Of a stretch of DNA of 64,000 bases, positions 5,056-57,800 are shown in pieces. The number at the start of each line of letters is the position of its first letter. Within the stretch, counting starts at the first letter, position 1. The translations under genes were made by a program, and so were the position numbers. This DNA comes from Ascidiella aspersa (taxonomy: Eukaryota), in the NCBI GenBank assembly GCA_963924565.1, contig OZ004614.1, positions 21,824,001 through 21,888,000 on the forward strand, written 5' to 3'. The notes under the pieces are model-generated. The model was not told the DNA's origin. It worked only from the letters and a program-made list of their open reading frames with translations, and searched no databases.

Positions 5056-7196
5056 TCAGGCCACAGACGTGTTCATTGTACTGAGTGACATGGCCACTGA
5101 ACTCGTGCTAGGAATGCAGGTGAGACGCAGACGCCGCCGCCAGTCGTGGTAGGCGTAGATAACACACGATGCTCCCACGAAGACGTTGATATCGTATACG
5201 GTGGCCACCCAGATGACGACCTCCCTTTCAAGCAGAAACGATGCAACGATGGCGCCCACGTCTGTGATGATGATAATAGTGAGTGAAATCAGGGTTCGCT
5301 TCATCACCAGGTGGATTTGCTTGCCGGCGCGCATGCGGTTGTCAGTCTTGGGCAGTCTCTTCAGGAAAGGGTAGAGCAGCATGGCGACGAGCGCAGGTTG
5401 AAAAAGCACGGTGAAGATGAGGCCGCTCAGAGCGCGCGTCGACTGTGAAATCGTGCCTTGATCCGCGAAGAGACATCCCCTTGGACTTGGCTCTAAGTAC
5501 GGTCCGATGACACTTAGACACCAGATGATTAGGAAGGTGGTGGCCATGGCTCCCATGAGGACTTTGCTGAGGCGCATTCGCAGCTTGCGTCCGGGCAAAC
5601 TGGCCAGCGCTTTGTTGTCCTGCACCGCATCCTGTCGCAGCCAGAGGATCAGCATGTTGGCGACCAGATTTCCTCCGTAGCCGCACATAAGCATGATGCC
5701 GTACGCCATGCACGCCGGCTGGCTTACGCTGCCCAGGAACAGATCGATTTCGTTAGTGAGAGTCAGGAAGACGGCGCAGCCACAGGAGAAGATGGTCAGG
5801 CGGCTCAACCTAAACGCGAAGAATGCAGTTACACATTTATCAGTGATTAGAAGCTTTTGTCCAGGTAATAGCTACTGTTGTGCGAACAGCTTTGCTAAAA
5901 TAAGCGTGTACCGACTGGGGTATGGAATCAGCACGAATCGCCATTCGGTTGGCCCTGTTTTTGTACATAAAAGCACAACTGTCTATTGTTTGGACGTAAG
6001 CAAATAGAGCATTTGGTTAGTTTCAGAGAACAACCTTTGAAAGTAGGAATTTACAATTACCGCTAAAAATAGGTGCGGTTAATGCAGCGATGCAACCTGA
6101 GATTGTTGTTGTGGTATAATGTTAAATTTTCTTGATCATAAAACGACTAAAAGCACTTAATACAAATATTTATTTCCTAACACTTTACTCGAATTTTAAA
6201 ACTTGTGTTTTACTTCCTATATAGAAATGGGTTACCCAGTACTATCGTGCTATGTACATTTGTTAAAAAGTATCGCGGTCCGGAGCATTATCTAGTTTAC
6301 TTATGCCACATCGATGAATTTACCTCTGAAAACCATAGCTAAAATAACTATATTATTTGGTATCGGAGCGGCACCGATACTACCCTTGATCGGACGACTA
6401 TACCGAATACTTGGATCGTGTATCGGCTCCGATCCGCTATTATCGGACATCCCTATATGCTACACTAAATTGATGTTGTCCAAAGTTGCGATTGCTCGGT
6501 TGCTTCATGACAAACCAGTCGAAAACAAATCGCTTAAGACAAGCTCCACCATTGGTTCCCAAACTTTTTTATTCCGTGGCCCAATTTTTTTTCCAAAACT
6601 GATCGTGGCCCATTGCTTTTTTCCACCTCTATTGATGACTAGTTTATATTGATTAACAAAGGTTTTTTTAATATTACAAGGATTTTATTCGTTGATACCA
6701 CTTGTCTAACAACAATCGGAGCTTTGATAAGTTTCCGATCTGTCGAAGTTAAACAACTCGCACGCGCACAGTTTTCGCAGTCACAAGATATTTTAGATAT
6801 GCATACAACTATATTTTAGTAAGACAAAATGTGTAGTTGTAATGTTTTCATATAGCTCTATGTCCCACTTAAAATAGTCTCATGGCCCACTTGGCCCACA
6901 GTTTAGGAATCGCTGACCTCAGACGAGATCAACACTTACCAGTATTTGCGTCTCTCTCTCTTGGCTCTTCCAGTTTTCACGCGAGCCTTCTGTCGAATGG
7001 TGGTCGAGTCGGAAAAACTTGCGTTGTTGGTGGAAGCCCGGACTTTCTTGGGAGTCTTGCCGAACTCGAACAACAGCAGGCACACCAGCATGTAGACCTC
7101 GATGACCAGCAATACACAGGTGTAGGTTTGGTGAAAGATCCATTGCCAGGAGTCGTACAGCGGCTCTGCACTGACAAACGTTGTCGTGTTGTTCAT
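5056..7196 (-). CDS. Orphan divergent 7TM (GPCR-like) receptor, paralog 1; 2 exons, 336 aa
   Basis: complement(join(5056..5809,6940..7196)). Donor TG|GTAAGT and acceptor TTTAG|G give a phase-2 intron, and the frame closes at 1011 nt. N-terminal sequon MNNTT, seven hydrophobic segments, Cys at the top of TM3 and in ECL2 (PRGC), LWLRQ at the end of TM3, YDIN in TM7 and a DWRRRL helix 8. Confidence 0.88.
6550..6915. mobile_element. Degenerate hAT-type MITE in the intron of receptor 1
   Basis: Ends CATTGGTTCCCAAAC ... GTTTAGGAATCGCTG (imperfect TIR) with GGCCCA subterminal motifs. TSD not preserved. Confidence 0.55.
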
Positions 7197-18500: not shown

Positions 18501-21021
18501 CTACACACGCCTTAAGTTGGTGTTGACCAGGGCCGCCACAGCTGGCTTTTTGGGCGTTGCACAGGCACAGCAAGTCAGGCGCATGCGCTTGCGCCAGTCG
18601 CTATAGGCGAAGACGAGCGATGCAACGCCAAGAAACGAGTTCAAGTCGTAGGCGGTCGACACCCAGATGGCTGGTTCTTCAGCAAGCAGAAACGAGGCTA
18701 GGATGGCGCCTACGTCCGACACTGTGATGGCGCAGAGTGAGACGAACGTGCGCTTGGTAAGCTCCTTGACTCGCCGCACTCCAGTCATCTTGCCGCCGCC
18801 CTCGGCTGGTAGTTTCTTAAGCAGCGGGTAGAGCAGCAACGTGGCAAAAACAGGCTGGAAAAGCAGTGTGAAGACCAAACCGCTGCTGGCGCGGGCCGAC
18901 TGCGCAACCGAGCCCTTATCGTCGAAGCAGCAGCCTTTCGGACTGGGCTTCAGTTTTAAGCCGACTGTGTTAAGGGTCAAAAGACAGACGAAGACGGCTA
19001 GCATGAGCACCAACAGCACTTTGCTGCCGTAGATGCGCAGTCGCTTGACGGGCAGGTTGGACAGTGCCCGGTTGTTTTGCACGGCGTCCTGTCGCAGCCA
19101 GAGCACCAGCATGCAGAAGCACACCACCCCGCCGTAGCCCAGCATGGCAAAGATTCCTACCAGGCTACAAGCCAGCTTGGACTTGGTCCCCCAGAAGAGA
19201 TCGATTTCGTTGCTCAGGGTCTTGAAGATCGCACAGCAGCAGGCAATGATCGTGAACCAGCTGATGCTGCGCGATGAAGAAAAGTTGTAAAATTTACCTC
19301 GGTTCTGTGACTAACATGAATGCAATTATAGCTATACGTGGGTTCTATTAGAAAATTGGTTTTGTCGTTTGATTGCATTTTATAAAAATACACTTTTCAA
19401 AAAACAACAGGTGTAGTAATAGTTTTCCGTACTTTGAATAAACTTTCTATGAAATATAACGAGTATATATTATTATTATTTGATTTTGGTAACTAACACA
19501 AAGAAAAAAAATCGGTTGTTTGGTTAATATAGCGGGCACGGATTCAGGATTTTCGTTTGGCGGGCCATGACAATTTTTTAAAGGTGATGCACAAAGAGTT
19601 ACGTCATAACGTGGGGTCAAAACGTTTCGTCATAACGTGACGTCATAAAAAAAAACCCTTAAAAACACCACACAGTTAGTTTAATTTAACAAAGTTTTGG
19701 TTGGAGAGGTGTTACTTTCAATTCACAAGCTACATCACAAAGATGTTTTTGATTCGTGCAAAGCGATACACGCTTTTGAACCCCTTGAGTTGCCAAAACT
19801 TTCGTATCTATAGTGGAATGAGACCGGGCATTTGGGTTGAAAAAAATTTCTCAAATCGCGTAAGACAAACTAAAAAGGTCATTCAGATTCAAGCGAATTG
19901 CAATGCATACCACCCGATTTTCAGTTCGAAGTCTTTGAACAAAAATAATAACATGTATGGGCATCAATTTTGGATTCCAAATAAAGATTTAATTTAGCAG
20001 GGTGTAAAAAAACAAATCTTTGCCTTTAATACCGCGAAGAGCGAAAATTTTCTTACAACCTTTAGTACAGACTTATACCAACCGTTATGAAGCAATTTGC
20101 TTCATCAACAAATACATAGTTGAATATACAGATACAAGATATACTGCGGTATTTCGATCAATGTTTTAGTTCCGCTATTATACCGTAACTTTGCTTGTTA
20201 TACAGTAACACTATACTGTAACCTTATTCATTAGCTTTAAAATACAAATTTAATTAAAAAACAATTGTTTTATGTAAAAAAATTGTGTGTTTACTACTTA
20301 AAGTTTCTTTGCCCTACTTTCGCCTCGCGGGTGTACTTTTCCGTTGCAGTTCTTATCACCGTTACTTCGCGACTTCCGTTTTTCTGTTTATAGAGCGTTC
20401 TAAAACGCCCGAGCGTCGATATAATGACTTGTTTTTATCTTAGCCTCACTTAACGCACTGACGATGGCAAAAGAACTTGCCGAAACGTTTGCTAATAAAA
20501 AAATGAATCTTTTATCTATTATTTGGACCACTTTCTTTCTACTGAAGATTATGAACAGATCCGTGTTTAGTGTTCACAAATACTTTGTTCTATACAAATT
20601 AAAATATATATAAATATGTAACAAATTGAACGAAACGTTCAAGTCCAAATTGGAGGCCCGGTTTTTCAATTTACCAAAAACAAGTCCAAGTCATCTATAT
20701 TTCAATAGAAAATTACGTCACAAAAAAACAAACAAAAAAAACTCGTCGGAACACTGCTCACCAGACAAATCGCCTCTTCCGCTTTCTTTCGACCTTTTTC
20801 GGTTTCACGACGAACGTTGCTCGTTTGTTTCCAGAAATGTCGGACTGGACCTCGATTGAGGCTGCGGTTTGCTTGCCCAGCGTCGTCCGCACTTCGTCCA
20901 GCAAAAGGCAGGTCAGCATGTAGATCTCGACGGTGGCGAACAAGCAGGTCGACGACTGGTGAAGAACCCACTCCCACGAGCTGTACAGCGGTTCTGTAGC
21001 GTTGAAAGTCCCGTTGCACAT
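18501..21021 (-). CDS. Orphan divergent 7TM receptor, paralog 2; 2 exons, 341 aa
   Basis: complement(join(18501..19266,20762..21021)). Donor TG|GTGAGC, acceptor GCGCAG|C, 1026 nt in frame. Motifs EPLYSSWEW, VEIY, NEID, LWLRQ, PKGC, FQP, YDLN and DWRKRM are shared with the other paralogs. Confidence 0.88.
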
Positions 21022-27586: not shown

Positions 27587-29325
27587 CTAGACAAGGTTTC
27601 CCATCGTTACTTGACGTTCGCGCGTGCAGCAGGCCGCCGCCCTTATTACATTCTGCCAGTCCGAGTAGGCGAAGATTAGCGACGCGACGCCTACAAGGCA
27701 GTTCAAGTCATAGACTGTCGAAACCCAAATGGCTGGCTCCCTCTCGCAAAGGAACGAAGCAACGATGGCTCCCAAGTCGGATAGCGTGATTATGGATAGC
27801 GATAGGAGGGTGCGTTTGGTGAGCAGTCTCACACGCGTAACCCCCGGCATAGGGCGTCCTGCGCCGATAGGGAGTTTTTTCAGGAGCGGGTAAAGCAGCA
27901 GGGCGGCAAAAACGGGCTGAAAGAACAGAGTGAAGACCAGCACGCTGCTGGCGCGCGCCGACTGCGCTATCGATCCCATGTCGTCGAAGCGGCAGCCCTT
28001 GGGACTGGGCGTCAGTTTCAAGCCTACTGTGTTGAGAACCAGTAGGACGAAAAGCACCGTAAGCATTGCTACCAGCAGTGCCTTGCTGGCGTTGACGCGC
28101 AGTTTCTTGCGAGACAGGTGCTTCAGCGCTGGGTGATTTTGCACGGCGTCCTGTCGCAGCCAGAGCACCAGCATACAGAAGCACACCACCCCGCCGTAGC
28201 CGCACATGACGAAGATTCCGACCAGGGTACAAGCCAGTGGAGAGGTCTTGCCACCCAGCAGGTCGAGTTCGTTGCTCAGGGTTTTGAAGATCGCACAGCA
28301 GCAGGCAAGAATCGTGAACCAGCTGATGCTGCAATTGGAATGACATGTTGTGTTATTTAGGTATAATACTCTCGGTTGAACGTGCGTTTAATGGCTCTTT
28401 AAACGATGGGTGTTTATTGGGAGCTTGTTGGTTGTATATCATGCGGGGTTTGAAGCCTATTGATATAGCAGTTTGGAGCCTTAAACGTATTCTGAAAGCT
28501 ATAGGTGAAATGTGAAACCGTCCCCATAGTTTTATATCTCTTCAGGCCGGCAACAAATGTATTACTTTGTACAAGAATCATCTGGACGCTTTCGATAGGA
28601 CACTATTGGCACATGGTAGTCCATTCACCTCCAGTTACAAAAGGCCCTATGGGGCCTAATGTACAACAAAACAGATAAAATAACTATGTACAATGTAGTG
28701 GGACTATTGCGATTGTAAAGCGGTTAATTATATTCTTTTAGAAACTAGTTGTGCACTTAAAGAAATGTAACCTCTACCTATATATGAGACTTAACACAAA
28801 TATTAACTGAAGATTTACGACCCTGATAACTGATTCTCCTTTGTACCGTTTTGGTAATTTATTTATTTTACCGTTTTTTATGGTTTATTTTGTTGTATAT
28901 AGTTGTTAACCAACTTCACGATTTCCCCCACAATTTTTCGACGTCGCTACCACTACATGTGCTCCCGATATGGACTTTTGACACCTTTGCACTGAAAGCG
29001 CATAAAAAAGCAGCAAAAGTCCTTCGGGGTGATTAACACCTAACGAAAGATAAGCTACAAAAGCTTACCAAGCAAATCGCGCCGACCGCTTGGGCATAGG
29101 CGGGCTCGCAGATGCAATAACCATCTTCTTCTGATGGGCGCTGGTTTCGTTAGGCGCCTGGCGTTGAAGGCGATGAAGGCGTTGACGTCGTCGGGTGTTG
29201 AACTCGTTAATTAAAAGACAGGCGAGCAAGTAGATTTCGACGCCGGCGAACAGGCAAGTGCTGCATTGATGAAAGATCCTTTCCCAGGACTCTTCGACGG
29301 TCATGTTTGGAGAGGCATCTGGCAT
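27587..29325 (-). CDS. Orphan divergent 7TM receptor, paralog 3; 2 exons, 332 aa
   Basis: complement(join(27587..28328,29069..29325)). Donor TG|GTAAGC, acceptor TTGCAG|C, 999 nt in frame. Same motif set; exon 2 is very close to that of paralog 2. Confidence 0.88.
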
Positions 29326-33717: not shown

Positions 33718-35814
33718 TCACACGCTGTTCACCGAGACGGTGGCGACGCCGGTGTCGCTCGACCCTCGAGCCCGACGTTTGCCGCGCCCCAGTCTAAGTC
33801 GCCGCTTCCAGTCGTGGTAAGTGCACACGAGACCGACTACGCCGACGAAGCAGTTGACGTCGTAAACGACTGCGATCCAGATGGCGGCTTGCTGCTCCAA
33901 GTAGAATGAGACAACGATCGAGCCGATATCGCTCAGCAAGATAGCAACGATGCAGACAAGGGTGCGCTTAATCACAAGACGCACGCGCGCGATCGCTGGT
34001 GTGTTCGTGATGCCGGAGCCTGTCTTCGGGAGTGTTTTCAGCAGCGGATAGAGCAGCAGCGCGACAAGGGCGGGCTCAAACGTAATCGTAAAAATAAGGC
34101 CGCTGACCGAACGCGCCACCTGCGAGATGCTCTCGTGGTCATTGAAGTAGCAGCCGTTGGGCGTATTGACCAGACCCAGAGTGACCGTGTTGAGAATCGT
34201 AAGCACCCCGAAAACGACAAACAGGAAAATGAGGAAAAACCAGCTGAGAAAGCGCCTCAGCTTCTTTCCAGGAAGACTGGACAGCGCTGGACTACTTTGC
34301 ACCGCCGCCTGCCGAATCCAAAGGGCGATGGTGTAGCAGAACACGTTGCTGCCGTATCCCAGCAGCTGAAAGATGCCCACGAGTGTGCAGGCCGTTTGCG
34401 ATTGCCGTCCCCAAATGAGGTCGATTTCGTTGCTGAGACTCTTAAAGAGCGCAGAGGCGCAAGCAAGGATGGTAAACGTGTTCAGCCTGCAGTTTAAAAA
34501 TCGCAAGTCTGAGCACATCAGATACCTATAGGGTATCTTTTAGACATTCACAGTTTTCTTTACAGATATAATGAAAATTAATAACATTTAGTTATAAAGC
34601 ATCAGTATGAAGCTGAAAAACTCGCAAGTGTGAGATTAAACTTTTTTATTCTTACAATAACAAGATTTTATCACATAATGCTGCAGCACATTAAATACCT
34701 AATTACGGAATGTTTTATACATTCACAGTTGTCTATCTTGATATAACGAAAATTAATAACATTTAGTTATAAAGCATTGTATCCCCAAACACAAAATTTG
34801 ACCATTAATATTTCTACCATTAAGGTATAAAAATAAAACCAAATGTTTGACCGAACATGATTTGTTAAAAATAATTATTAGGGTAGTGTATTGATTAAAT
34901 TAGGTGATAATAGTTTATCTGACAACCACGGAATGTTTTGCAAGTTACAAACGCAGTGATAAAGGAAGTTTGCAAATTTGGTTTGCTAACGTGCTGTATG
35001 TTTAGAGCATGCACCTAAATTTGAATGCCTATAGTGGTGATATTGGGACAAAGCTAAAAATAGTGGCGTATGGTCTTCAAGAGATTTAAATAAAAATTTG
35101 GAAAGGTTTCTAAAAGAGTGACACAAAAGTCGTTTAACGTATAATTTAAGTCAGGGATTCTTAAACTGGGGTCCATGGACCCCTTTGGGGGTAATCAAGC
35201 AATCTATTTTTCAAAGAAAAGAGTTGGCTATAGTTAAAAATAAAACGTTTTTGCACTGAATATACTTAAACTTTATTTCATTTCACATTTTTTGGACCAA
35301 AAATAGCAAATGTCTGAAGTCTGTTTGTATTATGACACCATCACTAAAAAATTCTCGCCTTCGCTGGTCCGTGCAAAGCAAAAAAGTTTTTTAGTGGTCC
35401 GCGGTAAAAAAAGTTTAAGAACCCCTGATTTAAGTGATTAACTTTTTACACCTATACACATCACAAAACACTGTTTTAATGTTAAATTGTTGTACGCTTT
35501 GGCAGTCAGAGAAATATTTAGAAATCTGTAAACAGGCTATCTATCACCCACCATATTTTTCGCTTATCTTCCGTGGTGCGTTGCTTCTTGGCAAGACTGG
35601 TGGCCGTCAAACGCCTCAACTGCTGTGCGGCGGTTTCACTCTGCTGGGGCGAGTGGGGGTGGGATGGGAGCGCACGCGGTCTAAACTGCCAGGCCAGCAG
35701 GCAAACCAGGATGTAGAAATCAGCGCATACGAACAGGCAAGTGGTCGTTTGCGGAAGTATCCATTCCCACGATGAGTAGGTTGGTTCTGATATGTTGCCG
35801 TTGTTGTTGGACAT
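33718..35814 (-). CDS. Orphan divergent 7TM receptor, paralog 4; 2 exons, 343 aa
   Basis: complement(join(33718..34486,35552..35814)). Donor TG|GTGGGT, acceptor CTGCAG|G, 1032 nt in frame. Motifs EPTYSSWEW, NEID, LWIRQ, PNGC, FEP, YDVN and DWKRRL. Confidence 0.86.
34544..34777 (+). repeat. Local direct duplication (~59-bp core, 175-bp offset) in the intron of receptor 4
   Basis: ACATTCACAGTT...GATATAA(T/C)GAAAATTAATAACATTTAGTTATAAAGCAT at 34544-34602 and 34719-34777. Confidence 0.8.
35152..35427. mobile_element. hAT-type MITE in the intron of receptor 4
   Basis: CAGGGATTCTTAAAC / GTTTAAGAACCCCTG; perfect TSD ATTTAAGT; same family as 62211-62564. Confidence 0.9.
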
Positions 35815-43604: not shown

Positions 43605-46600
43605 ATGCCAAGAAGCCAAGAGCTAGTCAACGCTACAGCAACGTCAGATTTCTGGAGAAACGCTAGCGCAGCCGAGGTGGTCGTGAACACCAACAGCACG
43701 CAAATCGAAGTGCTGCAACCCAAGTACAACTCGTGGCAATGGATCGCGACGCAGATTTTGGTTTGGCTCCTCGCCAGCGTCGAGCTGTACATGCTGGTCT
43801 GTCTGCTTCTCTACGAACGAAACTTCCTCAACAAAGAGCCAAGACGGTCGTCCGGCGCCGCCGAGAGCCAGCTGTCGGATTCGAACCCAAGCCGGAAAGT
43901 TGCCGCCCGACGCTGCAAGGCAGACAAGTCGCAGACCACCAAAGTCTGGTGAGTATTCCGTTGAGATTGACAAACCTTGGCAACTTACCATTGTTTTAAT
44001 GACTTAAGTTACTGCTGTTAAACAACTTCCCTTGACCTAATTCGTTTAGGTAAAATGACTTAATGCGACTTAAGGCTGATGGACAAAGGACTTGGCTTGG
44101 ACTTAAGTCATTGAGTCAAATGACTTGGGTTAAAATTAAGTCTATTTATTTAACAATTAGTTGAAAAATTGAGGTATTTATCTATCGTTGCACGTAAAAC
44201 AATCAGATTGCTACAGGTTGTTTTTTCATAGTTTTTAGTGGACATATTGCTCAAAATCGGACGAGTTTACCAATTTTAAAGGTTTATCGTTTTATTTTGA
44301 TAACAGTGATTTGTCTTGTTTATGCTTGTTCTAATAATGACTTGAGTTGAATGGGACCTGGACTTTGTTTTCAAACTTGTTTACAATTACTGTAAGTGGC
44401 CGTTTGAGGTTTGAGTAAATGCAGCACTGCATTATAAGGTAACGTAAAACGAAAATTTGACGTATTGAATTCCTTCAATGAAATAGCTTAAAACAGTAGA
44501 AATAAAAAATCATACTGCATTAAAATTCGCAGATTACTGTGTTGCATGTTTTCAAAAGCGCGTTTTTTAGCGTATCTCGTTCGAAAACAAAATATCTTGT
44601 TCAAAACAAAGATATGACGGGATTTTAATCGGGGTTTCCCTGTATACCTATTTAAATCTTATTAAACCAGACCGGCAACAAATAAGCAATTTTGTTTGCC
44701 TATCATCTATAAAAAAGACTAGTTTGCCGAAAGCTATAAAACGTGACGTTTATTGGTTTAAAAAAATGCAATAGCATGACAAGTCCAAGCTCGTTTCAAC
44801 AGAGTTTTTTGTGTCGCTTGTCCTAAAACTTACATTTCAAATATAAATTAATATTTCGTCGCCAAGGACACAAATTTTATGGCAAGACACCAATTTACAA
44901 GCAGTAAATAAAACAAAACGCACGTGATTAAATCAGGCGTAAATCGTGACGTTCTGCAAGCAAATATGTATTGACACACACAAGGGCATATTCTTATTGA
45001 AGCTCGATAGAAAACGTTTTAAAATCGACTTAAACGGCAGGCACCGTACTTTTTTCATTATCTATCGCTTTAGTTATGGCAGAGTTTTCCAACCTGGTTG
45101 GAATTTCGAAGTTTCAAGTGGGGAATTTGAAATTTGACCAAACACGCACATTTAGTTGGGGGTGAAATATATTAATACGAGGAAGGAGCAGACCTCCCCT
45201 TCGAAATATAAATATATGTTTTTCGCAAGTAAGACAGCACTTTAAATGAAGTGTACATGATCCTTATTATTGCGTCACAATGTGATCTCTGTACTGTAGT
45301 ATTTACTACGACTGCATATTTATAATGATTTATGTGGTTACATCGATAATATCAACTTTTCTTTGAAAAAAATATCAGCAAACTAGACTAACAATTTGAT
45401 ACTTATATAGCGGCTGAAAAGCGTGTAATTGTTAAGCTGTGTTATACTCTCTTCGTTCATTGACAAATTTACAGGTGCCGTTTTGCTTTTGGTTAATACA
45501 GTTTTAAATAGCGATTTAAGAGTCCAAGGGATAAGAAACGTTGAGAACCACAAATGTATGGTTCCCGGGTTTGTATGAATAGCTTTTTCACCGAAACAAA
45601 GTAAATAATTAGCAAATATCGTCAATCGTCATTTGGTGCGCAGGATACGGCGTCTCACCATTCTCGCCTGCGCCAGCGCCCTGCTCAAATGTCTCAGCAA
45701 CGAAATAGACCTTTTCCTGGGAACAAGGAGCCAAACCGCCTGTCAGGTGTTCGGAGTCATCGCAGTCTGCGGCTACGGCGGTTCGCTCTTCTTCGTAATG
45801 TTGATCCTCTGGCTGCGCCAGTCGGCTGTTCAGAATCACAAGGCGCTTACTGGCCTGCCCGGAAAAAGAATCCGGATTTTTTGCAGCAGGTAAAACATGC
45901 GCTGTGTGTTTGATGGTCGACAGAGGCCTCGTATTGGCCTTTATTTTCATATAGTTTATTTGCCTGTTTGAAATCCCTGTGTTTTTTTATTAATGTTTAC
46001 AGTTCTTTGAAGCCTTGTGTCACCCCTCCATTGCACGAAAGTTTGTCATTTTTGTGTGTCAGCTGTCTACAGTAGACCTTGATGATTTACGGACCGCAGG
46101 TCAGGCCTGACTGCCAAGTTGAATCCGGCCTGTAGCTCATTATTCTTCCACAAAATCTTTTAAGCGATAATGAGAATTTACCTTTCTTTTCTTGATTTTA
46201 AAACATTTTATTGAATAAACTACTCTTGTAAGGAATCTTTACCTGGCCTTACCTTATAAAAGTTTGTAAAACCAAGAATATTTTCGGCTTGCATTTAAAA
46301 TCAATCAGCCTTTATGTTATGTGTGTTTTAGATACCCCTTTAAACCGACCCTTTTTGAACATTGTCTGTTTTTATGCGACTCTCTGCCCAAAAATAATTG
46401 CCCACCCATGGTTTATATCACTAGTTCTTAACCTTTTTCTTGGCACGCCCCTTTTATAACTGTTCTTTTTCCCCGCCAGACAATTATAAAGTGTCACAAC
46501 CACAACACAAACCTTTTTTTAAGGTTTGGTTTGGGTGACCGCTAAGTAGCTTTAAGAGACCGCAAGTGTTTCATTTAAATACCAAAAAGTTGCAAGTCCA

Positions 46601-47901
46601 AAGTTTGGGAAACGCCTGGAGAAATTTGGGGGACCGTTTCGGTCCCCAAAAACACCTTAAAAAAACACTGGTCACAACAAAAGCAATTTTGTATTTGTCG
46701 GTTATATATCAGTAAGGCATCTTACTATACCAAACTATTACTTACACATTAATTGCTCGTACACAAATTGCTCGTGGTCAATAATGATCTTTTATTGTAT
46801 CGAGATTATTTTTTGTCTTTCATCAAATTGTGCTCGGGAATTTGACCATGCAGTCAGACTTGGACAACCAGAAATTATATTAGAATTAAAATTAGAGCAT
46901 TTTAGTTTTCCACATAATATTAGAATTACCGAATTCCTACAAAATAAAATTTCAACTATAGAGTTTGAACTAGAATCACATTTAATTATTTACAATCATT
47001 TTGATTTAATCGCAATTTATTCTTATGAGAACGTGAATGGTAGATATGTGTGTGCTAATTTTTATGCCTAATCTTTTAGTTTGTAAAAATTACATACAAG
47101 TCGTTCAAACCAAAGAGTTTTAACTAAAATTCTGTGTTTGAACTGAGATACTAAAAACGCCGTTGGACAAAGTAGCATTTTGGCAAAATCCGAATTAGAC
47201 TAGAACTAGAATTAGAGAAAACAAGCAATTCACAAATTAGATTAGAATTAGAATTAGTAGAATTTTGCTCTAATTCACTGAATTAGAAAACTAGAATTAG
47301 CTAGTTGTCCAAGTCTGCTTACAGCTGTAGACTGAGTGCAGAGCTGCGCCAAAAAACACGTAAAAACTCCACTACTTTCTGCTCCCGCAGGTTTCTCCTG
47401 GCGCTCATGCTTCTCTTGTTCGGCGTGCTCTTCGCGCTCAACTTCGCCACCATGCGGCTCAAACCGGGACCATGGGGTTGCTTGTTCGACGACCTGGGTG
47501 AGCTCTCGCAGTCGGCACGATCCAGTAGCGGCCTTATCTTCACCGCGGTTTTCCAGCCCGCCTTTGCCGCCCTACTTCTCTATCCCTTCCTAAAGAAACT
47601 GCCGAAGACCGACGACCGTCGTTTGCCAGCGGTGAAGCGCGTGCGCCTTGTGATCAAGCGTACTCTCATCTCGCTGGCTGTGATCGTTGCCTCGGATGTC
47701 TGCTCGATCGTGGCTTCCTTTTACATGGAGGCGATGCCTGTGGTGTGGCTGGCCGCCGTCTACGACCTGAATGCCTTCGTTGGTGTCGTCTCGCTTGTCT
47801 GCTCCTATCAGGACTGGAGGCGTCGCATGCGTCTTGACAGGCTGCGCACGCCCGCCTCGCTCAGCAAAGACGCCAGCAGCGCACCCCCGGCCAGCATGTG
47901 A
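43605..47901 (+). CDS. Orphan divergent 7TM receptor, paralog 5 (inverted); 3 exons, 366 aa
   Basis: join(43605..43948,45644..45889,47391..47901). Junctions TG|GTGAGT...GCGCAG|G and AG|GTAAAA...CCGCAG|G, 1101 nt in frame. Longer N-terminus with three N-x-S/T sequons. Motifs VELY, NEID, LWLRQ, PWGC, FQP, YDLN and DWRRRM. Confidence 0.87.
46855..47317. mobile_element. MITE with TTAGAA-rich interior (copy 2), in intron 2 of receptor 5
   Basis: Perfect 14-bp TIR CAGACTTGGACAAC / GTTGTCCAAGTCTG. Confidence 0.85.
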
Positions 47902-51918: not shown

Positions 51919-52469
51919 ATTTAAAGTGTTTTTTTTTATTTATATAACGATAATATAATTTGTTACCTAAGCCAAGGTCACTTTTAAACTTCACGTTTAG
52001 ATTTTACATTGTGAAGTCACATCTTGACGTAACTTTGTGACTTTACGTTGTGACTTGACGTTATCTCTGAAAAACATTCAATGTCCCCCATTATATTGAT
52101 ATGCTATGTTTTTAAATACTGCATTTGACTGAATTTTTATCAAATCGTAAAAATTGTTAGGCGACATAAATTGTCTTAACTCAGGGACTTTCCCCAGTTG
52201 CTACGCTCTAAATTTATCCTTGTCACCACAGTAAATTAAAGGTTGTTTTTTTTAATTAACTTTAATTGTATTTGTATTAAACAAACTAAATTCGAAAAAA
52301 ATGTTTTATGTATTTCGTAGCCTATTTAGAAGATTTTGCAGTCTTTTGGTAACACGTCATCCGTGTTTGTGGTTTTGTTGTTACAACCATACGTTTCCAC
52401 AACACAACGCTGTAATAATGCATACCATGTAATATCAACATCACACATGCGATGCGACGTTGCCTGCTA

Positions 52470-52650
52470 GACGCACTCGCTTTAAGCAGCGGAAACGGAA
52501 GCTTCCAGTTAATATTACTGTTTATTGCGAAGTGTTATGCAATAAACACGTGCAATATTGTATTCTAAGTGAAACTGATAGAGCTAGTTTTGCGCATACA
52601 CTTGACATTTCTCTAATTAAAAGTGTTGAAAATCGCCCGAATGGTAGGAT
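52470..52650 (+). promoter_or_regulatory. Candidate promoter and non-coding first exon for the TRPV/SLC35A unit
   Basis: CpG-rich patch with tandem ETS-like cores GCGGAAACGGAAG (52489-52501) and a possible donor ATG|GTAGGA at 52644. CpG density falls downstream (by eye). Confidence 0.3.
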
Positions 52651-52782
52651 AACTTTAAACAGGAATACGTTGTAATTACTGTTTTATCAGATCTTATTCC
52701 AGCTGGATTTAATTGATTTTGAAATTAGGACTGAAAAATTTTTTTTTTTGGTAAGGTGGCAGTCGGGTCAAATCAGTTTATA

Positions 52783-52998
52783 ACAGGTAACACTAATTTA
52801 CGGAATGATGAATGGTCGGAACGCTCCCAGTAGTATTATTAAATATAATAACACTTGACCCACCTTCTCCCAAACGCTAACCCCCACCCTAACTCAAATA
52901 TTGTGCATTGGTATAATAATTGTTTCAATTTAACGGGGTAACACTCAATTTAGTGAGCGTTCCGACCATTCATCATTCCGTAAATTAGTATTACCCGT
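52783..52998. mobile_element. Foldback MITE with ~45-bp TIRs
   Basis: ACAGGTAACACTAATTTACGGAATGATGAATGGTCGGAACGCTC is inverted at about 52956-52998, with a CTAACCC-like core. Related palindromic core near 54018-54108. Confidence 0.85.
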
Positions 52999-53220
52999 TT
53001 ACATCTGTCAAACGATTAGATTAAGAAAGTAATAAATTGCTAACCTTTAAGTTAGAAAAGCATTGTTAATAACTATACATACATTCATATAATGCAGTTT
53101 TCTGCTTGTTGTTATTTAATAACTTTGTCATTTGTTATGTACCCCTAACCATTGGATTTTGTGCTCTGTTGCTAGTAAGCTAAACAATTTAGGAATTTAT
53201 ATATCTGAGTTGGTCTAAAC

Positions 53221-53610
53221 CAGGGGTAGGCAACCTTTTTAACAAAAGGGCCAGTTAGGAAATGTGATGCTTACAGGAGGGCCGCAAACTAATTCATATT
53301 TCTAGATTTTACTACAAAAATTAATGAGCCACCAGGCTGCAACTCAGCAGTTTTGTCAGCACAAGTGTCAACTTGACACAAGTAAAAATTTATAAATGAA
53401 GATTGTTTTGTAATAGATGCTCCCCATTCGAGTTCAACTGCATTAGTGTAGCGGTGTAGCCTATGGCTTACATCGCACTTCAAACAGGAAACTGATCGAG
53501 CCAAAGTCTCAACATGGTGCACATTCATAGCCTTATTTGGGGAAAAATAACTGAAAAGAGGTGAAGGGCCGCACAAAAAATGGAAAAGGGCCGCACATTT
53601 CCCATCCCTG
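53221..53610. mobile_element. hAT-type MITE
   Basis: CAGGGGTAGGCAAC ... TTTCCCATCCCTG; perfect TSD GTCTAAAC; GGGCCGCA subterminal motifs. Confidence 0.88.
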
Positions 53611-54461
53611 GTCTAAACTCTTGCCAATTTTGTGATCGTATAACAAACGGCCATAAAGCGGATCATTTTACATTTTTAGTCACAGTTTGAGGCACTAGTC
53701 TAGAATCTTACCAAAGCGTTTAGACAGTTATTCAATTCACATACAATATTTGGGTTAAACAAATAAAAAACTCAGAGTTTATAAACCTGTGTAAAACCAG
53801 GATTAGACATTCTGTTAAAGAAATATATATTTCGCCTATACTGGCAACATCAGTTACTGTAAGTAAAATACATATACATTGCAAAGTAATAACAAAATTA
53901 ATAAAAAGTCAAAAACATTTAAAAGCAATATAGATTAATTAAAAGTGTAAAAACAAAACATTTGGCTGATTGAAGAAAAGTATGGCTTTCTGAAACGTGA
54001 TTTTATGCAAAGCTTATTAGGGTTAGCATTTGGGTTGGGGTGGATCAAGTATGGTTGTACTTGATATTTAATAATAGTGTTTAACCCACCCAAACACTAA
54101 CCCTAACCCAGATCATATGCCTTGTGGTAGGATTCTAGACCAGCTCCCTGTTTGAGGCTATATAATGTCTTGCGAGAAAAACTAAGCAACTGTTTGTTTA
54201 TCTTAATAGTGATAACCAACTTTATTATCTGGTACTGCCAATTATGTGGGACTGTTGCTAGATAATATAAGACTTTTAATGAACGTTTTTTTTTTTTTTT
54301 TGAATCAGTTTAACAAATGATCAAAATATTTACCCTAATTCAAAATGAATCTACAAAAGTCTTGGAACAAGTTTTTCTATCGAAACCCCAAAGGAAAAGT
54401 TAACAATGATACCGTATGAAAACAGCAAAATGAACAAGCTAAAAATAATGATGTGTACAAA

Positions 54462-56867
54462 ATGGTTGACTTTGGTGGTGGAGGAGCATTTCTCGATGTT
54501 TGGAACCTTAATGGAGAAAAGGAATCGGATGCCGAAAAGACCAAACGCTTTCAGGAGTATTTTGAGAAAGAAATCAAGCCTTTTTATCTCTACGATGAAT
54601 GTACAATGATTACTGAAAAGGAATACCAGGCCTTTCATAATACTATGAGTAAAAAAATCAAAACGATGATAAAGCAAAAGGAAAACAATGAAACCGTAAC
54701 CGACTTTGGAGATGATGGGATTTCGCAGTATTCCGAAGCAACCCTCGAGACCCTGGTGTTACCCTTTATTGAGCATACAGTAAAGTGGAGAATAGACAAG
54801 CGTGGAGCAGTTGGGGAAACCCCAATGCACCTGCTGTTTTTGATAAATACACCAAGGCATATAAAAATTGCCAAGGCAATCCTTGCCATTTATCCTGAAC
54901 TTTCAATTGACATCTATGAAGGCTTTGAATATTATGGCGAGTCATGCCTGCATTTGGCTATCATTCAGCAAAATGTTAAGGCAGTAAGGCTGCTGCTTAA
55001 TACTGGGGAGTTGGTGGAAAAGTACTGTCATTCTAGAGCTCGCGGTCGCTTCTTTCAACCATTGAGCATAAAGCGAGGAGATGTTAAACTGAAGAAGCAG
55101 AAGTTTGAGGGGTATGCATATTATGGGGAGTACCCCCTTTCATTCGCAGCTAGCACAGGAAATCATGAGATCTATGATCTGCTCATCAAGCACAAGTGTA
55201 ATCCAACCCTGACAGACAAGTTTGGGAATAATGTGCTACACCTGACTGTAATCCACAACCAACCGGATTTGTATTACTACGCTGTAAAGCATGCAGTTCA
55301 CAAAGCAGATCCTAACCAAACCAATAATGAGGGCCTTACCCCTCTTGCGCTTGCTGCAAAATTGGGAAGAAAGGAAATGTTTGAAAAGATCCTTGAGATT
55401 TCATCCAGAGAATACTGGTCTTACAACACAGTTACATGCTCCGTATATCCTTTGAAGTCCCTCGATACAATTGGTCCAAAAGGGGAGACTGACTGGAATT
55501 CCGCTCTAATGATGATAATTCGTGGCAACAAGCAGGGGCATTACGACATGGTTGCCAATGACGTTGTCCACCAATTGCTTCAAGAAAAATGGAAAACTTT
55601 TGCCAAAGCAAAGTTCATGCGGCTCTTGGTATTTTACCTGTTTCACATTGCCTTGTTGTTTCCAGCTGTGTACTTACGGCCCAATGCTCAAGCCGATTTG
55701 CGCTACGGAACCAGCAGTTATGATATTGCCCGTTATGTTTTTGAGGTGATGGTCTTGATTGTCAGTACCGGTGTGCTTTTCTATGTTTCAAGGGAAATAT
55801 ATTTGGAGACCCTGTATGGTTTTATCCAAAACCTGTTTGCAATTCCTTCCAGAGTTGTCTATGTGTTGTCAAATATTTTAATAGTCTTGTGCGTTCCTTT
55901 TCGGTTTGCTGAATTGTATAGCGTAGAAGACTGGCTTTTGGTTTTTGCTATTCCGGGATTGTGGTCATATCTTCTCTTTTTCTTTAGAAGCATTCCACAG
56001 TTTGGGCCCCTGATTATCATGATATACCGGATTCTTGCATCAGATATGTTCAGATTTGTTTACATTTATGTTGTAATAGTTTTTACGTCAACTGTTGCCT
56101 TTTTCTACCAGTTTGAAGGTCAAAACATTTTTGCATTCCAGTCAGCACCTGGCACTGCTATGACTCTATTCCAGATGACTTTTGGAGAGCTTAGCTACCA
56201 GGATGTTTTAAGTGCAAAGTTGCCAGGACTCTCAATTGTATTGTTTGTAATCTTTATGGTCCTTGTTCACATTTTGCTGCTGAACATGCTCATCGCAATG
56301 ATGACAAGGACCTTTGATAAGATAACGGCCAAATCAAAAAAGGTCTGGAAACAGCAGTGGGCAGCTATGGTGGTCACAATGGAACGATCGCACAGACAGG
56401 CTCAAAAGCGAGAATTTCAACAGTCGTATGACATGAACATTAACACAGCTCGTGTGTCAAGTGAAGGTGCAGCTGCAGGCGAAGAAGATATCAACACAAA
56501 CATAAAATACGACGATCGTGCTATAATGGTAATTAAGCAGAGACAAACATCAGAAACTGGTCGCCGTCGCATCATTCAACAGTCTTGGAAAAACGTGGGA
56601 GAAAAGGCTCTTACTATAAAGCCATCTACGGCTGTTGCTCCCCCACAATTGGAAATTCGTAGTGTGGCTGGAATGACTGATTTTATGTTGGGCGGTTCTC
56701 ACAATGAAACTTTTGATGATGAAAATGACGAAGGGGAACTTGAAGAAGAGGAAAAGATCTCCGCTGTAAAGAGCTTTCTACAGAAGTCATTTTCAAGAAG
56801 AGGGAGTGCGGCATCTTACACATCACCTGAAGCCTCACCAAGATTAGGAAAAGGGGACATTGTGTGA
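54462..56867 (+). CDS. TRPV: TRPV-family cation channel (Nanchung/Inactive/OSM-9/OCR-like), intronless ORF; 801 aa from ATG 54462 (840 codons from ATG 54345 across an in-frame TGA)
   Basis: Ankyrin repeats (RGAVGETPMHL, YYGESCLHLAI, YYGEYPLSFAAS, FGNNVLHL, NEGLTPLALAAKLG), six TM helices, pore LFQMTFGE, S6 LLNMLIAMM and the TRP-box region WKQQWA. The ORF track starts at GTG 54453; the first in-frame ATG after the stop is 54462. Confidence 0.95.
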   Translation: MVDFGGGGAFLDVWNLNGEKESDAEKTKRFQEYFEKEIKPFYLYDECTMITEKEYQAFHNTMSKKIKTMIKQKENNETVTDFGDDGISQYSEATLETLVLPFIEHTVKWRIDKRGAVGETPMHLLFLINTPRHIKIAKAILAIYPELSIDIYEGFEYYGESCLHLAIIQQNVKAVRLLLNTGELVEKYCHSRARGRFFQPLSIKRGDVKLKKQKFEGYAYYGEYPLSFAASTGNHEIYDLLIKHKCNPTLTDKFGNNVLHLTVIHNQPDLYYYAVKHAVHKADPNQTNNEGLTPLALAAKLGRKEMFEKILEISSREYWSYNTVTCSVYPLKSLDTIGPKGETDWNSALMMIIRGNKQGHYDMVANDVVHQLLQEKWKTFAKAKFMRLLVFYLFHIALLFPAVYLRPNAQADLRYGTSSYDIARYVFEVMVLIVSTGVLFYVSREIYLETLYGFIQNLFAIPSRVVYVLSNILIVLCVPFRFAELYSVEDWLLVFAIPGLWSYLLFFFRSIPQFGPLIIMIYRILASDMFRFVYIYVVIVFTSTVAFFYQFEGQNIFAFQSAPGTAMTLFQMTFGELSYQDVLSAKLPGLSIVLFVIFMVLVHILLLNMLIAMMTRTFDKITAKSKKVWKQQWAAMVVTMERSHRQAQKREFQQSYDMNINTARVSSEGAAAGEEDINTNIKYDDRAIMVIKQRQTSETGRRRIIQQSWKNVGEKALTIKPSTAVAPPQLEIRSVAGMTDFMLGGSHNETFDDENDEGELEEEEKISAVKSFLQKSFSRRGSAASYTSPEASPRLGKGDIV

Positions 56868-57800
56868 TGTTAAATTGGCAGAAAAGAATGTTCAATGTTG
56901 CTTTAAAAAGTCTGTCATCCTTTCTTTTTGGGAGCAGTTTCACACATGGAATATATCAAATGAACTATGAACTATGTGGACAACTGATTTCATTGGTTTT
57001 AAGCATTGTTGTTTAATAGTACTAAATCACAGTATTGCAAAACATAATACACAAGTTTGTACTACATATTTTTGTTAATATTTTTACTGTTGTTTTTAAT
57101 CCAATGCAGCACTTCTTGTGCATCCAAGTTGTATTTTGTATGTTGAAAATTTACTTATATATACACATTGAGTACATAGGTTTGCACTTAGAGTAATTTA
57201 TACTTATTAGCACTTTTCTAGATTTTACACAACCGATTTAGATTGTATTTTCACTTGCACTTAAAATGATGTATTACACTTGTTGCATTTTGTTAGTTTC
57301 AAGCCAAATTTGAATAACATATCCTTAAACCTTAAAAAGTTTGTACACAACTAACTTTGGTATACCAATTTTAAGGCGTTTTGTTCCACACTTCTTGCAA
57401 TCCATCATTTCTATAATACTTTATTAGGTTTTAATTACACACATACAGTTTAGCCATAGCCTTTGTGGCTATAATTTAAAACCAATAATGGTTTTAAAAT
57501 GCTTTACCGTTGTAAGTAGGCCTTAAAAATAGTATTTTTGTGTTTGGTTATTTTTTTAGTTTCAAGTAAGAAAGTCTTGTTAAGGTATAAATATCTATTT
57601 TTATGTGGAATTGACTGTACTTCGCTTTATTGTCGCACATTATTATCAGGTTTTAAGATAGCTTTGCGATTGTGTGTTATATGTACGGTTGATATTGTTT
57701 CATAACAAAAATCTTCTACTATTATGTACTTTGCAGTAGATAATTTTTCTCTTTTTTAGATTGACGTTGTATATAAAGTTTATAATTAAAAAGTTATTAA

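Follow-up and report, generated by a model that had tools for sequence, protein, structure and literature searches.

A TGA at a conserved tryptophan codon in the assembled Inactive-type TRPV channel gene of Ascidiella aspersa: probably a rare nonsense allele

Described systems and identity of the channel gene

TRPVA and TRPVB channels are both kept by ascidians and were both lost by vertebrates (PMC9664204). For the insect channel, activity was reported from the Nanchung-Inactive heteromer alone; a long S1-S2 loop is described as typical of Nanchung, and Inactive as having an extended C-terminal helix (PMC12808645). About 37.9 stop-codon polymorphisms are reported per Drosophila genome (PMC3342867), and recessive visible mutations in 16.3% of the wild Ciona screened (PMC2391289), figures which indicate that stop alleles are common in outbred animals. 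Human start-proximal nonsense variants are reported to escape NMD, which in LMNA is absent over codons 1-21 and activates over codons 22-25 (PMC12776119).

The locus described here was found in a window of 64,000 nucleotides of A. aspersa DNA (contig OZ004614.1), the whole stretch that was analysed. It resembles the segregating premature-termination alleles described for Drosophila (PMC3342867) and the recessive mutants described for Ciona (PMC2391289) in having a one-base stop with intact alleles in other samples under the species label, and differs from the Drosophila stop alleles in that the A allele is known from the assembly alone and not from raw reads. Similarly, it shares with the start-proximal NMD-escape variants a stop at codon 25, less than 200 nt from the start, and a downstream in-frame AUG, whereas the rules given in PMC12776119 are those of human genes and codon 25 borders on the LMNA dead zone. 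Among the titles listed in a literature search on ascidian Nanchung and Inactive, a nonsense allele was not found, which is no proof of its absence from print.

The channel frame is opened by the ATG at 54345-54347 (context TTCAAA ATG AA) and comprises 840 codons up to its final stop, TGA 56865-56867. Its single internal stop is TGA 54417-54419 at codon 25, 72 nt from the start and one G-to-A transition away from TGG. The original prediction, which had placed this ATG in frame with the channel and this TGA as the only interruption of the 840 codons, was confirmed in the sequence. Translation from ATG 54345 gives MNLQKSWNKFFYRNPKGKVNNDTV, the stop and then KQQNEQ, continuing without intron to 56867. 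The part of the frame behind the stop is the sole ORF of more than 300 codons among the 50 window ORFs of at least 100 codons. A changed genetic code was rejected, the gene's own end being TGA and Trp being written as TGG elsewhere in the frame; for gene decoding, nothing new follows from the TGA.

The gene is an intronless ascidian Inactive/OSM-9-type (TRPVA) channel gene. Using Pfam, Ank_2 was found at 68.2 bits (cut-off 27.3) and Ion_trans at 44.6 bits (cut-off 25), i.e. ankyrin repeats followed by an ion-transport domain, the six helices of which are present in the predicted model. The best named homologs are ascidian (Clavelina P0002, 56%; Ciona P0003, 57%; Styela P0018, 45% identity), identity to the three best matches being 55-57%, and are followed, among the best 120 of 424 matches, by mollusc proteins, insect Inactive and nematode OSM-9. 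Comparison with solved structures yielded 474 bits for Inactive, 303 for Nanchung and at most 166 for vertebrate TRPV. A structure model was built on the read-through protein (mean pLDDT 83, 64 sequences), for which the best Foldseek fold matches were chain B of 9NVP and of 9NVN (TMt 0.87-0.88); chain B of 9NVN is Inactive. A long S1-S2 loop is absent, as the Nanchung alignment jumps from 430 to 578 while the query runs from 447 to 451, and the C-terminal helix is extended, the query helix 737-757 aligning with Inactive up to residue 708. Sequence and fold are shared with the Inactive/OSM-9 (TRPVA) orthologs of ascidians and with insect Inactive (9NVN chain B). Unlike these relatives, the assembly copy reads TGA in place of the conserved Trp25, and its residue 439 is Phe, where homologs have Ser or Thr.

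Copies of the gene were searched for in the genome (G000). Using residues 26-205 as a query, at least one match was obtained from 2 candidates and a second Inactive-type copy was not found. The ankyrin part gave at least four matches from 16 candidates: the gene itself, one weak match that is unrelated, and two that are exons of a Nanchung-like gene. A redundant second Inactive copy was rejected on these counts, which are lower bounds. As the gene is the sole Inactive-type copy found in G000, its loss should be selected against. The Nanchung-like gene is a multi-exon TRPV paralog, with Nanchung-like motifs recognized by eye, on the minus strand of the same contig as the channel gene, near 9.76 Mb (C8, about 9,755,300-9,769,900); it is the likely partner subunit of the channel. 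The many exons of this paralog differ from the intronless coding region of the channel gene, which may reflect old retroposition or intron loss. In another genome, four homolog clusters (P0007, P0011, P0015 and P0035) have their longest contig, of 221,689 bases, in common, which suggests tandem duplication of this channel gene there. Features of the window are collected in Table 1.

Table 1. Positions of the channel gene, its surroundings and other elements in the window.
Position	Strand	Feature	Basis or remark
5059-5871, 18504-19310, 27590-28387, 33721-34539	minus	Paralogous frames, about 270 codons	Four unbroken copies
45640-47820	plus	Fifth copy of the frame	Two pieces about 1.5 kb apart, split by insert or intron
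52641-52645	+	ATG followed by GT, earlier proposed as upstream exon end; unsupported	Frame arithmetic holds; no joint into 54426 over 54313-56900
52782-52999		Inverted-repeat element upstream of gene	45-nt arms, 96% complementary
53213-53618		Transposon-like element, about 390 bases	Exact 8-base flanking duplication (53213-53220, 53611-53618); short imperfect inverted ends
54017-54106		Inverted-repeat element upstream of gene	22-nt arms, 86% complementary
54307-54308	+	AG acceptor behind a pyrimidine-rich tract, probably used for SL trans-splicing	17 of 20 upstream bases pyrimidines
54309-54344	+	5' untranslated part of coding exon	Sequence; X3 contig covers from 54313
54317-54403	+	28-codon upstream ORF, out of frame, that overlaps the main ATG	C at -3, weak context
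54345-54416	+	True start and codons 1-24 of TRPVA channel, conserved WNKFFYRNPKG motif	Homolog alignment
54417-54419	+	TGA in assembly at codon 25; TGG (Trp) in X8 and X3	Reads and contig; W in 20 of 20 covering homologs
54420-56867	+	Remainder of the coding sequence, without intron: ankyrin repeats, channel domain of six helices and C-terminal helix, with the stop at 56865-56867	Pfam, model; no joint or indel
54462-54464	+	Met40, inside the conserved YKMV motif; re-initiation may occur here by accident, on the TGA allele only	
55659-55661	+	Codon 439: Phe in assembly, Cys in X8 and X3, Ser/Thr in 21 of 21 closest homologs	Reads and alignment

Conservation of codon 25 and of the amino terminus

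For the column of codon 25, 21 chosen closest homologs (P0001-P0019, P0022 and P0030) were aligned. W was present in every one of the 20 covering the column, the remaining one being a fragment without the residue. Among the best 120 of 424 homologs the column contained W in 56, I in 51, K in 1, V in 1 and a gap in 11, so that W was found in 56 of the 109 with a residue; the I group is, by name, mostly arthropod Inactive. Residues 1-24 were compared with the first 60 residues of seven ascidian-type homologs, giving scores of 60-87. As none of 2000 shuffles reached the score in any of the seven, this match is not due to chance. At least 25 residues precede the column of Met40 in 109 of the 120 listed homologs, and 0-8 residues in the other 11, which include records named partial or isoforms. 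The Met40 column itself holds Met in 11 of the 20 closest homologs and Leu, Ile or Phe in 9. In the predicted model, W25 lies within a helix (21-34) that is followed by a second one (36-40), with pLDDT blocks of 72 and 90 over residues 21-40. Trp25 and the first 24 residues are conserved, and the orthologs do not all start at the equivalent of the Met at 54462. Judged from the alignment, translation of the normal gene begins at 54345, and its codon 25 stands for Trp.

These data bear directly on the earlier proposal of a 24-codon in-frame uORF with re-initiation, under which codons 1-24 would be regulatory and Met40 would be the normal start of the channel. The ATG at 54462, 42 nt downstream of TGA 54417-54419, does lie in a strong context (TACAAA ATG GT; A at -3 and G at +4) and would give a product of 801 aa. 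Nevertheless, codons 1-39 are conserved coding sequence, upstream residues are nearly general among the listed homologs (109 of 120, as above), Met40 is Met in merely 11 of the 20 closest ones and residues 21-40 are predicted helices. Moreover, three out-of-frame ATGs (54430, 54448 and 54451) precede 54462, and the stop is missing from the other samples (X8 and X3, see below). A uORF of this kind is scarcely tenable, and re-initiation at 54462 might at most occur by accident, on the TGA allele alone.

TGG in other samples and the origin of the TGA

Positions 54313-56900 were compared with four of 13 listed runs, X1, X3, X8 and X9. X8 consists of raw genomic reads from another study carrying the species label of X1, X3 of contigs from the study of X1, and X9 of raw RNA reads. 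X1 itself, possibly the source of the assembly (0.94 of words), gave 0 records aligned on 54313-56900, a null that can be false. In X8, G was found at 54419 in 5 of 5 reads with about four start places. In X3, one contig of 2598 bases spans 54313-56890 and has G at 54419 together with 24 other differences. The intact TGG allele was thus present in both of the other samples covering the site, and A at 54419 was absent from every covering read or contig (X8, 5 of 5 G; X3, 1 of 1 G). No indels or joints were listed for any run compared over these 2588 bases. The 22 reads of X9, all of one strand, lie within 55096-56748, with none at the stop; the channel gene is expressed at low level in that sample. 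For X3 the word share was 0.43, the expectation being 0.441 if only 54309-57100 were covered and 0.741 if, at the divergence of X3, the whole of 52300-57100 were. X3 therefore behaves like an RNA library. Raw reads at 54419 had been named earlier as the place to look; TGG was seen in X8 reads, as in the X3 contig, both from other samples, and the A was seen in no read.

Between the samples 40 differences were counted, of which 27 were synonymous, 12 non-synonymous and 1 the stop. The resulting pN/pS of about 0.12 (binomial p about 2e-10 against neutral proportions) indicates that the gene is under purifying selection, whereas stop-allele genes in PMC3342867 are described as usually less constrained. 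The assembly letter was private at three sites, 54419, 55643 (synonymous) and 55660. Two of these three are protein-changing, too few to show relaxed selection; the two private letters besides the stop mark the assembled haplotype as distinct. All 12 difference sites in X8 showed the other letter alone (3-7 reads each). X8 thus probably shows one haplotype, which suggests a homozygous stretch in that sample, and mixed sites were present in X9. The evidence for TGG is that of at least two haplotypes from two samples, not of a population.

Decoding routes past the TGA were weighed against the same data. If the TGA were normal, ribosomes might pass it by programmed readthrough, or A-to-I editing might turn UGA into UGI, which is read as Trp, and the A>G difference of the RNA-like X3 is the letter change that editing would give. 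G was, however, found in 5 of 5 reads of genomic DNA (X8) and hence exists in DNA. A-to-I editing is recognized by A in DNA and G in RNA, while the DNA of X8 has G, DNA and RNA here being from different samples. A stop used for readthrough would be fixed in the species and kept in relatives, while X8 and X3 have TGG and homologs are annotated with W at the site; the context is TGA-AAA and not the readthrough-promoting TGA-CT given in PMC12776119. Stop-codon readthrough, which had been among the explanations of the original prediction, was dropped since the stop is unfixed within the species label and stands before AA, and bypass by either route is very improbable.

Another proposal was an upstream exon ending at ATG 52643 and spliced to the CAG at 54425, so that the stop is skipped. 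The join is in frame, as had been stated, the ATG-GT at 52641-52645 combining with 54426 to an 814-aa frame. The CAG is, as had also been stated, weak as an acceptor (8 of 20 preceding bases are pyrimidines), its use would delete the conserved WNKFFYRNPK and W25, and the X3 contig crosses 54313-56890 in one piece without a joint. Joined instead to 54309, ATG 52641-52643 would read MFNK-stop. Splicing into CAG 54425 is accordingly hard to credit as the normal route; a minor isoform of this kind may exist, since rare forms are lost from contigs, the reads of X9 lie farther downstream and the comparison covered 54313-56900. Given the conserved Trp and N-terminus and the TGG of other samples, there is no need to invoke readthrough or editing of the RNA, a regulatory uORF or splicing around the stop.

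The TGA is a feature of the assembly and not of the species, and is either a private nonsense change of an ordinary kind or an erroneous base. This was the first of four explanations offered originally (a recent nonsense allele or an assembly error), and it is the one upheld by the conserved Trp of homologs and by the TGG of two samples. Probably the TGA is a real but rare nonsense allele of the sequenced animal, the normal gene starting at ATG 54345 and encoding Trp25. The weights given here to allele and to error are a judgement, not a computation. Errors of long-read assemblies are mostly indels, substitutions being rarer. The TGA is a transition substitution and no indel was found against X8 or X3, which favours a real allele over an error; four other, paralogous window frames of 266-273 codons are unbroken, and the assembled haplotype has its two further private letters (55643 and 55660). 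Both points favour it likewise, as does the commonness of stop alleles in outbred animals.

Alternatively, the A at 54419 could be a consensus or polishing error, in which case both chromosomes would carry TGG and the 840-aa channel would be intact. All reads and contigs at the site have G (X8, 5 of 5; X3, 1 of 1), the gene is single-copy in the G000 search and under purifying selection, and in the Drosophila data of PMC3342867 stop alleles at Q40 or above were right just 60% of the time. In addition, 54419 lies at a run boundary (GG-AAA versus G-AAAA), which makes read errors plausible at this position. Set against these points are the 2588 bases without an indel versus X8 or X3, the unbroken state of the other long window frames and the rarity of substitutions among long-read assembly errors. 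An error is thus a serious, though less likely, alternative.

For the nonsense allele, the following course is proposed. One G-to-A transition would have changed TGG into TGA in the animal's DNA, and the allele, probably recessive, would be shielded by an intact copy. Translation begun at 54345 would end with a peptide of 24 residues. Re-initiation at Met40, past the three out-of-frame ATGs, would produce at most little of an 801-aa protein; without residues 1-39, which are conserved, this form would have lost the predicted helix 21-34 as well as half of the next one (36-40) and would likely be impaired. Because the stop is start-proximal (72 nt) with no intron downstream, the mRNA of the TGA allele may escape NMD by mammalian rules. 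Its likeliest outcome would be a null or weak, recessive allele.

If the allele is real, it offers a one-base marker by which a natural loss of function in the ascidian Inactive ortholog could be followed through crosses. Gene models on this assembly probably start at Met40 or call a pseudogene, the correct model having 840 aa and Trp25. That the sequenced adult is homozygous for the stop, or that the allele is common in some populations, is improbable; the single letter of X8 at 12 of 12 difference sites does indicate that homozygous stretches occur at the channel gene. In that event a chordate would have its only Inactive-type channel knocked out naturally, or reduced to a hypomorph that starts at Met40, and there would be a ready mutant for the ascidian role of the Nanchung-Inactive channel lost in vertebrates.

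The 5' end of the transcript and other elements of the window

The AG ending at 54308 had been described as a strong polyT acceptor, which its tract bears out (17 of 20 preceding bases are pyrimidines). The Ciona leader is 16 nt long and about half of Ciona genes are reported to be trans-spliced (PMC1488885). In G000, 354 exact copies of the 16-nt Ciona leader followed by GT were found, the reversed control giving 0; many copies are in 584-base tandem arrays, e.g. at 5.22-5.45 Mb of contig C3. Of the 20 letters that the X3 contig carries ahead of 54313, 4 belong to the exon and 16 precede 54309. The presence of Ciona leader copies and these 16 letters are like ascidian SL trans-splicing, while in contrast to Ciona the leader is here assigned by length, its letters being unread. 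From this length of 16 letters, SL trans-splicing of the channel mRNA at 54309 is probable, although the letters might instead be genomic or come from an upstream exon. The upstream ORF at 54317-54403 is kept in X3, where no difference removes it, and could damp translation of the channel.

Elsewhere in the window, five paralogous frames of about 270 codons were observed, hydrophobic and 45-69% identical. Pfam analysis of 11 other window ORFs, the paralogous frames included, gave 0 families. By an Atlas score of 0.94 the frames were assigned to a mostly chordate cluster that is auto-named serpentine receptor and has no common Pfam family. They are a possible ascidian receptor family. The element at 53213-53618, upstream of the channel gene, looks like a non-autonomous transposon, putatively of the hAT type.
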